Of a stretch of DNA of 7,257 nt, positions 1 to 7,257 are shown piece after piece (position 1 is the stretch's first letter; each line of letters begins with the position of its first letter). A program made the position numbers and the translations under genes. The stretch is from a virus (Duplodnaviria > Heunggongvirae > Uroviricota > Caudoviricetes), in IMG/VR virus record IMGVR_UViG_2698536379_000025; one strand, written 5' to 3'. Under the pieces are notes generated by a model. It worked only from the letters and a program-made list of their open reading frames with translations, was not told the DNA's origin and made no database searches.

Positions 1-594
1 ATGCTTATTGGCTATGTCCGCGTATCAACAAATGACCAGAACACGGAATTGCAGCGTAACGCGCTGGAGTGTGCGGGATGTGAGCGGATTTTTGAGGATA
101 AAATCAGCGGCACGAAGTCCGACAGGCCGGGACTGAAAAAACTGCTCAGAACATTATCAGCAGGTGACACTCTGGTAGTCTGGAAGCTGGACAGGCTGGG
201 GCGTAGTATGCGGCATCTGGTCATTCTGGTTGAGGAACTGCGCGAACGCGGTGTTAATTTTCGCAGCCTGACGGATGCCATTGATACCAGCACGCCGATG
301 GGGCGTTTTTTCTTTCATGTGATGGGGGCCCTGGCTGAAATGGAACGAGAACTCATTGTCGAGCGGACTCGGGCCGGGCTGGAAGCGGCCAGAGCCAAAG
401 GTCGTATTGGTGGCAGACGTCCTAAACTCACCACGAGTGAGTGGGAGCAGGCAGGACGGTTGCTGGCTGCGGGTGAATCACGTCAACGCGTGGCGCTGAT
501 TTTTGATATTGGCCTGTCCACGCTCTATAAAAAATTCCCCTCATCAGCGACAAAGAATAAATTGTGTCATCCCTTAGCCAACCGGGACAAATAG
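1..594 (+). CDS. Serine recombinase, site-specific DNA invertase (Gin/Pin/Cin/Hin family)
   Basis: 197-aa ORF starting at window base 1. N-terminus MLIGYVRVSTNDQ carries the catalytic Ser (codon 25-27) of the resolvase/invertase domain. Conserved LVVWKLDRLGRS and GRFFFHVMGALAEMERELI motifs, and a C-terminal helix-turn-helix (GRRPKL...STLYKKFP). Family assignment is from recalled Gin/Hin sequences, not a search. Confidence 0.9.
   Translation: MLIGYVRVSTNDQNTELQRNALECAGCERIFEDKISGTKSDRPGLKKLLRTLSAGDTLVVWKLDRLGRSMRHLVILVEELRERGVNFRSLTDAIDTSTPMGRFFFHVMGALAEMERELIVERTRAGLEAARAKGRIGGRRPKLTTSEWEQAGRLLAAGESRQRVALIFDIGLSTLYKKFPSSATKNKLCHPLANRDK
46..108. promoter_or_regulatory. Candidate Fis-dependent recombinational enhancer inside the 5' part of the invertase gene
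   Basis: In Hin/Gin/Cin systems the enhancer lies within the 5' coding region of the invertase (established knowledge). Here two G-N13-C 15-mers (46-60 and 94-108) have centres 48 bp apart, and the second sits in an A/T-rich imperfect palindrome GATTTT-N7-AAAATC (87-105). The Fis motif is degenerate, so this is weak. Confidence 0.25.
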
Positions 595-595
595 C

Positions 596-627
596 CTGAC
601 ATCTCCGGCACAACTGAAAATATCACT
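596..627 (+). promoter_or_regulatory. Possible late promoter region for the FI operon (position not resolved)
   Basis: 60-bp gap between invertase stop and FI start. It contains CTGACA (596-601) and A/T-rich -10-like hexamers (AAATAT/TATCAC, 618-627), but the spacing is not canonical. No perfect TGT-N12-ACA Ogr-type dyad is present between 540 and 650. Confidence 0.2.
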
Positions 628-653
628 CACCCATTAACCACGGAGTTAAACGG

Positions 654-1844
654 ATGAGTGACTATCATCACGGCGTGCAGGTGCTGGAGATTAACGACGG
701 CACCCGCGTCATTTCCACCGTATCCACTGCCATTGTCGGCATGGTCTGCACGGCCAGCGATGCGGATGCGGAAACCTTCCCCCTCAATAAACCTGTGCTG
801 ATTACCAATGTGCAGAGCGCAATTGCAAAGGCCGGTAAAAAAGGCACGCTGGCGGCATCGTTGCAGGCCATCGCTGACCAGTCAAAACCGGTCACCGTTG
901 TCGTGCGCGTGGAAGACGGCACCGGCGACGACGAGGAAACGAAACTCGCGCAGACCGTTTCCAATATCATCGGCACCACCGACGAAAACGGTCAGTACAC
1001 CGGACTGAAAGCCCTGCTGGCGGCGGAGTCGGTAACCGGTGTTAAACCGCGTATTCTCGGCGTGCCGGGACTGGACACCAAAGAGGTGGCTGTTGCACTG
1101 GCATCAGTCTGTCAGAAGCTGCGCGCTTTCGGGTATATCAGCGCATGGGGCTGTAAAACCATTTCCGAGGTGAAAGCCTACCGTCAGAATTTCAGCCAGC
1201 GTGAGCTGATGGTCATCTGGCCGGATTTCCTCGCATGGGATACGGTCACCAGTACCACCGCCACCGCGTATGCCACCGCTCGTGCGCTGGGGCTGCGCGC
1301 TAAAATCGACCAGGAGCAGGGCTGGCATAAAACGCTGTCCAACGTCGGGGTGAACGGTGTTACCGGCATCAGCGCATCTGTATTCTGGGATTTGCAGGAG
1401 TCCGGCACCGATGCTGACCTGCTTAACGAGTCAGGCGTCACTACGCTGATTCGCCGCGACGGTTTCCGCTTCTGGGGTAACCGTACCTGCTCTGATGACC
1501 CGCTGTTCCTCTTTGAAAACTACACCCGTACCGCGCAGGTGCTGGCCGACACGATGGCTGAGGCGCACATGTGGGCGGTGGACAAGCCCATCACCGCAAC
1601 GCTGATTCGCGACATCGTTGACGGCATTAATGCCAAATTCCGTGAACTGAAAACAAACGGCTATATCGTGGATGCGACCTGCTGGTTCAGCGAAGAATCC
1701 AACGATGCGGAAACCCTCAAGGCCGGAAAACTGTATATCGACTACGACTATACCCCGGTGCCTCCTCTCGAAAACCTGACCCTGCGCCAGCGTATTACCG
1801 ATAAATACCTGGCAAATCTGGTCACCTCGGTTAACAGCAATTAA
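654..1844 (+). CDS. FI: Contractile tail sheath protein (P2 gpFI-like)
   Basis: 396-aa ORF beginning MSDYHHGVQVLEINDGTRV, recognised as P2-type sheath protein. GGAG at 642-645 is a Shine-Dalgarno motif 8 nt upstream of the ATG. Stop TAA at 1842-1844. Confidence 0.95.
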   Translation: MSDYHHGVQVLEINDGTRVISTVSTAIVGMVCTASDADAETFPLNKPVLITNVQSAIAKAGKKGTLAASLQAIADQSKPVTVVVRVEDGTGDDEETKLAQTVSNIIGTTDENGQYTGLKALLAAESVTGVKPRILGVPGLDTKEVAVALASVCQKLRAFGYISAWGCKTISEVKAYRQNFSQRELMVIWPDFLAWDTVTSTTATAYATARALGLRAKIDQEQGWHKTLSNVGVNGVTGISASVFWDLQESGTDADLLNESGVTTLIRRDGFRFWGNRTCSDDPLFLFENYTRTAQVLADTMAEAHMWAVDKPITATLIRDIVDGINAKFRELKTNGYIVDATCWFSEESNDAETLKAGKLYIDYDYTPVPPLENLTLRQRITDKYLANLVTSVNSN

Positions 1845-6957: not shown

Positions 6958-6975
6958 TGTTTTTATTTTATGTGT

Positions 6976-7004
6976 TTGTTTTATAAGGATAAATTAACTA
7001 AAAT
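6976..7004 (+). promoter_or_regulatory. Putative sigma70 promoter for ogr (TTGTTT-N17-TAAAAT)
   Basis: -35-like TTGTTT at 6976-6981 and -10-like TAAAAT at 6999-7004 with a 17-nt spacer, in the A/T-rich D-ogr gap. The predicted transcription start near 7011 lies downstream of the in-frame ATGs at 6970 and 7003 and upstream of the Shine-Dalgarno GGAAGAGG (7023-7030). Confidence 0.45.
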
Positions 7005-7038
7005 GGCACCATCAACAAAACCGGAAGAGGTGCTCGCG

Positions 7039-7257
7039 ATGTTTCATTGTCCTTTATGCCAGCATGCCGCACATGCGCGTACAAGCCGCTATATCACTGA
7101 CACGACAAAAGAGCGTTATCACCAGTGTCAGAACGTGAATTGCAGCGCCACGTTCATCACTTATGAGTCGGTACAGCGATACATCGTGAAGCCGGGAGAA
7201 GTCCACGCCGTAAGACCGCACCCGTTGCCGTCAGGGCAGCAAATTATGTGGATGTAA
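7039..7257 (+). CDS. ogr: Late gene transcriptional activator Ogr (zinc-finger, Ogr/Delta family)
   Basis: 72-aa product MFHCPLCQHAAHARTSRYITDTTKERYHQCQNVNCSATF... with Cys-X2-Cys...Cys-X4-Cys zinc-binding pattern. Shine-Dalgarno GGAAGAGG lies 8 nt before the ATG at 7039. The track ORF from 6970 is an in-frame upstream extension that is probably not translated. Confidence 0.9.
   Translation: MFHCPLCQHAAHARTSRYITDTTKERYHQCQNVNCSATFITYESVQRYIVKPGEVHAVRPHPLPSGQQIMWM

Follow-up and report, generated by a model that had tools for sequence, protein, structure and literature searches.

A predicted Fis-dependent recombinational enhancer within the invertase gene of a P2-like Escherichia coli prophage

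The start of a prophage invertase gene raises the question of whether the DNA that encodes the recombinase also contains an enhancer at which Fis would act and, if so, which of its bases form the Fis sites. The window, by which we mean the whole 7257-bp stretch of DNA that was analysed, is the tail-gene block of a P2-like (Peduovirus) E. coli prophage. Many E. coli chromosomes are 98% identical to it over its full length, some match to it is present in 2873 of 5426 complete E. coli genomes, and its first 600 bp share 95% identity with phage pro483. An open reading frame on the plus strand, at 1-594, encodes a serine DNA invertase of the Gin/Cin/Hin (Din) family, 197 amino acids long, and the candidate enhancer is contained within it. 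The protein has the composition of a small serine recombinase of a Din-family invertase system, namely a Resolvase domain (PF00239, 8e-53) and a C-terminal HTH_7 domain (PF02796, 9e-13), and is 65-67% identical to Hin, Gin and Cin. The gene is intact and its product keeps the catalytic serine, together with all six of the residues that contact Fis or the enhancer (K47, K48, R51, Q151, R154 and L155 in Hin numbering); its assignment to the Fis/enhancer-type invertases is thus supported. Sheath, tube, E/E', tape-measure, U, D and ogr genes follow 3' of the invertase. In pro483 an invertible tail-fibre segment lies directly upstream of the invertase and, as the window starts at the ATG, the crossover sites fall outside it.

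A sequence-only reading of this locus had proposed that a Fis enhancer is embedded in the 5' part of the invertase coding sequence, and had assigned its two sites to G-N13-C 15-mers at 46-60 (GAATTGCAGCGTAAC) and 94-108 (GAGGATAAAATCAGC), the second of them overlapping an inverted repeat. As a description of the DNA this is exact. The two 15-mers are centred at 53 and 101, 48 bp apart, and the repeat, GATTTT (87-92) and AAAATC (100-105) separated by 7 nt, is perfect. The spacing that it took for the Hin enhancer is likewise correct, being given as ‘47 bp between their centers’ by McLean et al. 2013 (PMC3798978). However, features of this kind are frequent. The window has 543 occurrences of G-N13-C, 7.5% of its positions, of which 43 are in the invertase gene and 9 in bases 1-170, and 57 pairs across it are set 48 bp apart. 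When bases 1-170 are shuffled by mononucleotide, 33% of the shuffles contain one or more pairs with exactly this 48-bp separation, as do 55% of the real 170-bp segments taken from the window. Perfect 6-bp inverted repeats number 7 in the window with a 7-nt spacer and 31 with spacers of 3-12, and no more than 5 of 38 diverged homologues retain the one at 87-105; on both counts it was rejected as a feature. The pair of 15-mers and the repeat are therefore no more than chance gives, and a search by G-N13-C and spacing has too low a specificity to place Fis sites.

The position of the enhancer can instead be read from homologous genes. The GenBank record of phage P1 (AF234172) annotates an ‘enhancer of Cin-mediated C-segment inversion’ at nucleotides 19-90 of cin, and in P7 a putative enhancer is placed at 19-86. 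As cin and the window gene align collinearly and free of indels here, the P1 enhancer equals window positions 19-90, and a candidate recombinational enhancer of the sis type, its limits taken from the 72-bp cin element, is accordingly placed at 19-90, in the 5' coding region where the mapped or annotated enhancers of homologues lie. The hin enhancer is 65 bp long, with a Fis site on each end, and is located ∼100 bp from hix; between its two Fis sites are A/T-rich ATTTA and TAATG patches that are approached by helix B of Hin (McLean et al. 2013, PMC3798978). A scan of genome contigs did not recover Salmonella hin itself, the best match being an 86% Hin-like gene in Pantoea. The hin sequence used here comes from a metagenome contig (L175) with a 100% match to the Hin protein, and was found with a degenerate pattern built on the published ATTTA and TAATG landmarks. 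On this contig ATTTA occupies hin 50-54 and TAATG 60-64, the centre of hix is 75.5 bp before the ATG, and the end sites 26-40 (TGTCAACAATTGACC) and 74-88 (GTGCAAATTGTGACC) are the two that agree with the Fis motif and are spaced by 48 bp. Since hin has one extra codon, these correspond to 23-37 and 71-85 in the window, one site at each end of the enhancer, with predicted centres at 30 and 78, 48 bp apart. No indel occurs between the two sites in any of 146 unique homologous sequences. The 15-bp registers, which are drawn from the text of PMC3798978, the GenBank annotation and motif fit, should hold to within ±1 bp. The sites homologous to those of the known enhancers are thus found ∼23 bases upstream of the pair that had been proposed; aligned with the enhancers of close homologues, that pair maps elsewhere, although the earlier interval and the present one do overlap, at 46-90.

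Fis favours G/C at ±7, Y-R steps at ±(3-4), present in ∼80% of regulatory half-sites, and an A/T-rich centre, while central G/C pairs, the wrong base class at ±3 or ±4 and G at ±8 are negative determinants (Hancock et al. 2016, PMC4784862). The predicted proximal site (23-37, centre 30; TATCAACAAATGACC, bottom strand GGTCATTTGTTGATA), which aligns to hin 26-40, has Y-R steps at -4/-3 and +3/+4, A/T at four of its five central positions and C at +7. It carries T at -7 and the unfavourable G at -8, both exactly as in hin, and is nearly invariant in DNA across 38 diverged enteric-type invertases. The predicted distal site (71-85, centre 78; GTGCGGGATGTGAGC) aligns to hin 74-88 and to GTGCAGGATGTGAAC in Mu gin, and has G at -7, C at +7, both Y-R steps and T at -8; its G/C-rich centre (3 of 5), a negative determinant, is shared with gin and cin. 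Neither site therefore presents the full motif, the distal one failing in its centre and the proximal one retaining only the C at +7 of the outer pair; these deviations are common to the functional sites of hin, gin and cin. Scored by our own rule-based heuristic, built from the determinants in PMC4784862, 71-85 reaches 7.3, the best value in bases 1-170 and within the top 0.1% of the window, and 23-37 reaches 5.1 (top 3%). The corresponding values are 7.0 for 94-108, in the top 0.2% of window 15-mers, and 1.4 for 46-60, a score equalled or exceeded by 43% of them.

A strict G-N13-C search missed the pair at 23-37 and 71-85 because the proximal site has T, not G, at -7, as it does in hin. The strict G-N13-C 15-mer beside it, at 22-36 (GTATCAACAAATGAC), was considered as an alternative register and rejected: it places T at +4 and loses both Y-R steps, scores 2.6 against 5.1, and has a spacing to 71-85 of 49 bp instead of 48. 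Around the proximal site, and overlapping it, are two more Fis-like 15-mers, 16-30 (centre 23, score 6.2) and 34-48 (centre 41, score 5.2), with offsets of 7 and 11 bp from it. Hengen et al. are said to have described, in 1997, extra Fis sites beside the proximal ones of hin and cin, at distances of 11 and 7 bp, respectively. The 15-mers centred at 23 and 41 are not conserved as high scorers in the family, a score of 5 being reached in 29% of sequences, and are not counted here among the parts of the enhancer. Within the distal site, G at nucleotide 75 (Ala GCG rather than GCA) is found in 2 of 24 sequences that are at least 93% identical, the window included; seven others have TGT changed to TGC at +3 of the same site.

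Whether these bases are conserved beyond the needs of the protein was assessed from synonymous change. A set of 181 invertase genes from viral, genome and metagenome collections, aligned over 420 nt without indels, comprised 146 unique sequences, and thinning to below 93% nucleotide identity left 62 representatives, which were split by protein residue 6 into 38 enteric-type genes and 24 non-enteric genes termed ‘GYAR’. For the enteric group, a neighbour-joining tree was built from nucleotides 121-420 only, and the synonymous changes at each codon, counted by Fitch parsimony, were compared with amino-acid-specific expectations. Across the enhancer (codons 7-30), 172 synonymous changes were observed against 229 expected (P = 4e-5). 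The deficit falls on the two ends: codons 9-12 (nt 25-36) show 5 changes where 36 are expected (P = 1e-10) and codons 25-28 (nt 73-84) show 15 where 29.6 are expected (P = 0.002). The spacer codons 14-23 are unconstrained (97 observed, 98.4 expected; ratio 0.99), and the ratio for the rest of the gene is 1.06. The patch at codons 9-12 is the lowest of 136 five-codon windows, the lowest windows are all located on the two end sites, and a pairwise method ranks the constrained regions in the same order. In the alignment, TCAACAAATGACC and GCAGGATGTGA (GCAAATTGTGA in the Hin clade) are nearly frozen, and the adjoining third positions vary freely. Conservation beyond coding need is thus evident at both end sites, which makes this a clean case of dual-use coding DNA, with two patches of 12-15 nt frozen at synonymous positions. 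The earlier idea that the sequence serves coding and cis-acting roles at once was sound in kind, although the bases that would carry the second role are not the ones it named.

Synonymous constraint by itself names no ligand, and the 5' ends of genes often show lower synonymous change. The patches at 25-36 and 73-84 might therefore serve some other role in nucleic acid, as an mRNA structure, a translation signal or a secondary recombination site, and for such a role it can be counted that, reportedly, Huebner and Arber found in 1989 a weak crossover site also within the P1 enhancer. As to mRNA structure, RNAalifold applied to the sense strand of the 38 homologues found none for 1-120, 15-95 or 19-90, the consensus energy being 0.0 kcal/mol and no better than that of column shuffles, and on this result a conserved mRNA structure was rejected as the cause of the constraint. 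It also counts against such another role that TCA and ACA are not known as preferred codons in E. coli. Moreover, the constraint takes the form of two discrete ∼12-nt patches set 48 bp apart around a free spacer, with no 5' gradient, and the patches agree with the published description of hin and fall at the two ends of the enhancer annotated in P1. We consider any such other role very unlikely, and a pair of Fis sites to be the better account of the two patches.

The constraint is specific to one clade. In the GYAR group (n = 24) there is no synonymous dip at the two site positions, and no Fis-like score is seen there, the medians being 2.8 at centre 30 and 1.3 at centre 78, where the enteric genes have 5.1 and 6.8. 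The residues K47, K/R48, K/R51, Q151, R154 and L155 are specific to Fis/enhancer-dependent invertases (McLean et al. 2013, PMC3798978). They characterize the enteric group, and in the window protein they are K, K, R, Q, R and L, whereas GYAR proteins have A47, E51, S151 and K154. Fis-contact residues and DNA sites therefore go together: the relatives without those residues have lost both DNA signals. The GYAR recombinases presumably use a different accessory system or none. They form a widespread group (loci L119-L163), found in non-enteric Proteobacteria and on plasmids and 57-61% identical to Hin; the 420-nt sequence of one member, L141, is common to 17 loci. Two other loci in the collection deserve mention. 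A contig assigned to Vagococcus sp. WN89Y (L085, 1501-2046) carries a gene with enteric-type Fis sites whose identity to Salmonella Hin is 86%, and its presence in a Firmicute-labelled assembly suggests contamination or recent transfer. On a 3.2-kb metagenome contig (L173), the 5' part of a hin-like gene occurs twice in inverted orientation, at 366-388 on the minus strand and 2788-2810 on the plus strand, which could be an assembly artefact or an inverted duplication.

With these groups defined, the 15-mers first proposed can be weighed against the predicted pair. For 46-60 and 94-108 as the functional Fis sites, it can be said that both are G-N13-C with centres 48 bp apart, and that 94-108 combines an A/T-rich centre with its high rule-based score. 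The first of them, however, lies inside the spacer between the predicted sites (38-70), a segment of fixed length and free sequence whose A/T-rich patches at ∼47-51 (AATTG) and 57-61 (TAACG) align to ATTTA and TAATG of hin. The 15-mer at 46-60 aligns to GATTTACAGCGTAAT in hin, that is, to the inter-site spacer approached by helix B of Hin; Y-R steps are absent from its ±3-4 positions, +4 is a T and the centre contains G/C, and a Fis score of 5 is reached at this position in none of the 38 homologues. Synonymous change is as expected at both 46-60 (50 observed, 51.2 expected; ratio 0.98) and 94-108 (41 observed, 41.7 expected; ratio 0.98). Together with the chance-level frequency of the 48-bp pair, the location of 94-108 outside the 72-bp element annotated in P1 and the similar look of that position in relatives lacking the enhancer, this leaves the original assignment of sites extremely improbable.

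The 15-mer at 94-108 nevertheless merits consideration on its own, as a possible third site. Its centre is 23 bp beyond that of the distal site, which puts it just past the 3' limit of the P1-annotated enhancer. The position is Fis-like in both groups, with a median score of 6.55 in the enteric and 5.5 in the GYAR genes; the equivalent in hin lacks the C at +7, and the equivalents in gin and cin score high. Since the position is Fis-like also in relatives without the enhancer, the resemblance stems from the coding of a conserved E-D-K-x-S-G, and it is most likely that 94-108 is a by-product of encoding E-D-K-I-S, rather than a required part of the enhancer. It would be no surprise if Fis bound here in vitro. 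A true third Fis site, auxiliary to the other two in the Gin/Cin/P2-like lineage, might tune the frequency of inversion or the expression of the invertase; a function is argued against by the free synonymous change, the location outside the P1 enhancer and the Fis-like character of the position in enhancer-less relatives, and we regard such a site as unlikely.

The predicted pair can also be compared directly with the named systems. One close counterpart is the 72-bp sis element of P1 cin, in the same position of a collinear gene without indel and with the same 48-bp spacing. Its proximal site differs by one base (TATCAACAAATGAAC in cin, TATCAACAAATGACC in the window) and its distal site by two (GCGCAGGATGTGAGC in cin, GTGCGGGATGTGAGC in the window), whereas many synonymous positions differ in the spacer. 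The arrangement around the gene is different, as the P1 invertible segment follows cin, with cixL where the gene ends, and that of the window system is, to judge from relatives, upstream, as in Mu. In Mu gin, which was compared by sequence only because no enhancer is annotated in the Mu record, the proximal 15-mer matches that of the window at every base (TATCAACAAATGACC) and the distal site differs by two bases (GTGCAGGATGTGAAC against GTGCGGGATGTGAGC); the tail-fibre G segment is likewise upstream, its boundary 67 bp before the start codon. The hin enhancer occupies the same place in its gene, shifted by 3 nt through the extra hin codon, with A/T-rich patches in its spacer, a proximal site nearly identical to the window's, including the unusual T at -7, and a recombinase whose contact residues K47, K/R48, K/R51, Q151, R154 and L155 are kept in the window protein. 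It differs in the centre of its distal site (AAATTG, against GGGATG in the window), a difference that tracks the encoded A-N-C of hin and A-G-C of the window; in a distance from hix to the proximal Fis centre that is longer by roughly one helical turn (∼107.5 against ∼97.5 bp); and in what is controlled, Hin acting on flagellin and not on tail fibres.

The geometry on the window side is taken from relatives, the crossover sites being outside the window. In 41 relatives, including genes ∼97% identical in DNA to that of the window, the ATG is preceded by a 26-bp gix/cix-like crossover site (TTCTCCCAAACCAACGTTTATGAAAA), whose centre is 68.5 bp from it, and in pro483 tail-fibre and assembly genes separate this site from its inverted partner, at a distance of 1875 bp. 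The crossover and proximal Fis centres are about 97.5 bp apart here, ∼96 bp in Mu and ∼107.5 bp in hin.

An enhancer that was inherited but has become weakened or inactive in this particular prophage is a further possibility. The rare G at nucleotide 75 adds a G/C pair beside the already G/C-rich distal centre, making the site slightly more G/C-rich than in relatives, and the invertase has an unusual C-terminal extension (…SSATKNKLCHPLANRDK, window 541-594), with 197 amino acids against 186-193 in Hin, Gin and Cin. However, nucleotide 75, at -3 of the site, is a purine in either case and the Y-R step is preserved; the gene is intact and encodes every catalytic and Fis-contact residue; and near-identical prophages are widespread in E. 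coli. Loss of activity in this copy therefore appears improbable, and a functional enhancer is the reading that we favour.

That reading is that 19-90 is a Fis-dependent recombinational enhancer, homologous to those of hin, gin and cin, with predicted Fis sites at 23-37 and 71-85, and we assign it a probability of roughly 85%. It is based on positional homology (the P1 annotation and the hin landmarks), motif fit, clade-specific synonymous constraint and a co-occurring protein signature. Fis binding at 19-90, stimulation of inversion and the exact register (±1 bp) are what we infer from this evidence. The sequence-only reading was right, as far as homology, motif fit and synonymous constraint can strongly support it, in placing a Fis enhancer inside the 5' coding sequence of the invertase. 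The element itself is an ordinary homologous member of a well-known class.

By analogy with Hin, one Fis dimer would bind at each end of the enhancer, at 23-37 and at 71-85, and, as the centres are 48 bp apart, the two dimers would stand in the helical phase seen in Hin. The bent Fis-enhancer segment could then capture the pair of invertase dimers occupying the inverted crossover sites that would flank the upstream tail-fibre segment. In such a complex, the β-hairpin arms of Fis would be expected to touch helix 1 of the DNA-binding domain of the invertase (Q151, R154 and L155, Hin numbering), and basic helix B (K47, K48 and R51) to sit on the spacer at window 38-70. Tetramer formation and strand exchange would thereby be triggered, inverting the tail-fibre segment and potentially switching host range. 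If this is true, the tail-fibre inversion systems of P2-like prophages, matches to which occur in more than half of the complete E. coli genomes examined, would be under the same Fis/enhancer control as Hin, Gin and Cin. The importance of the finding is modest, and consists mainly in correct annotation, with the predicted sites placed to within about a base.

Some minor features of the surrounding DNA were also recorded. The 3' end of the invertase gene is within 60 bp of the start of the sheath gene, and the region between them is where we would presume the P2 late promoter of the sheath operon to lie. A scan of window 1-700 for sigma-70 promoters found nothing, as expected for an Ogr-dependent promoter, and four terminator-like matches are within coding sequence. 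Near the end of the E-like tail-chaperone open reading frame (genes at 2433-2708 and 2705-2860), a TTTTTTG slippery heptamer is present at 2681-2687, and an E' open reading frame overlaps in the -1 frame relative to the E-like frame; we take this arrangement to be the known P2 E/E+E' programmed frameshift. At 6970-7257, an open reading frame of 95 amino acids holds an Ogr-like zinc-finger protein (MFHCPLCQH...) that begins at an internal Met, and the 23 codons upstream of this Met are probably not translated.
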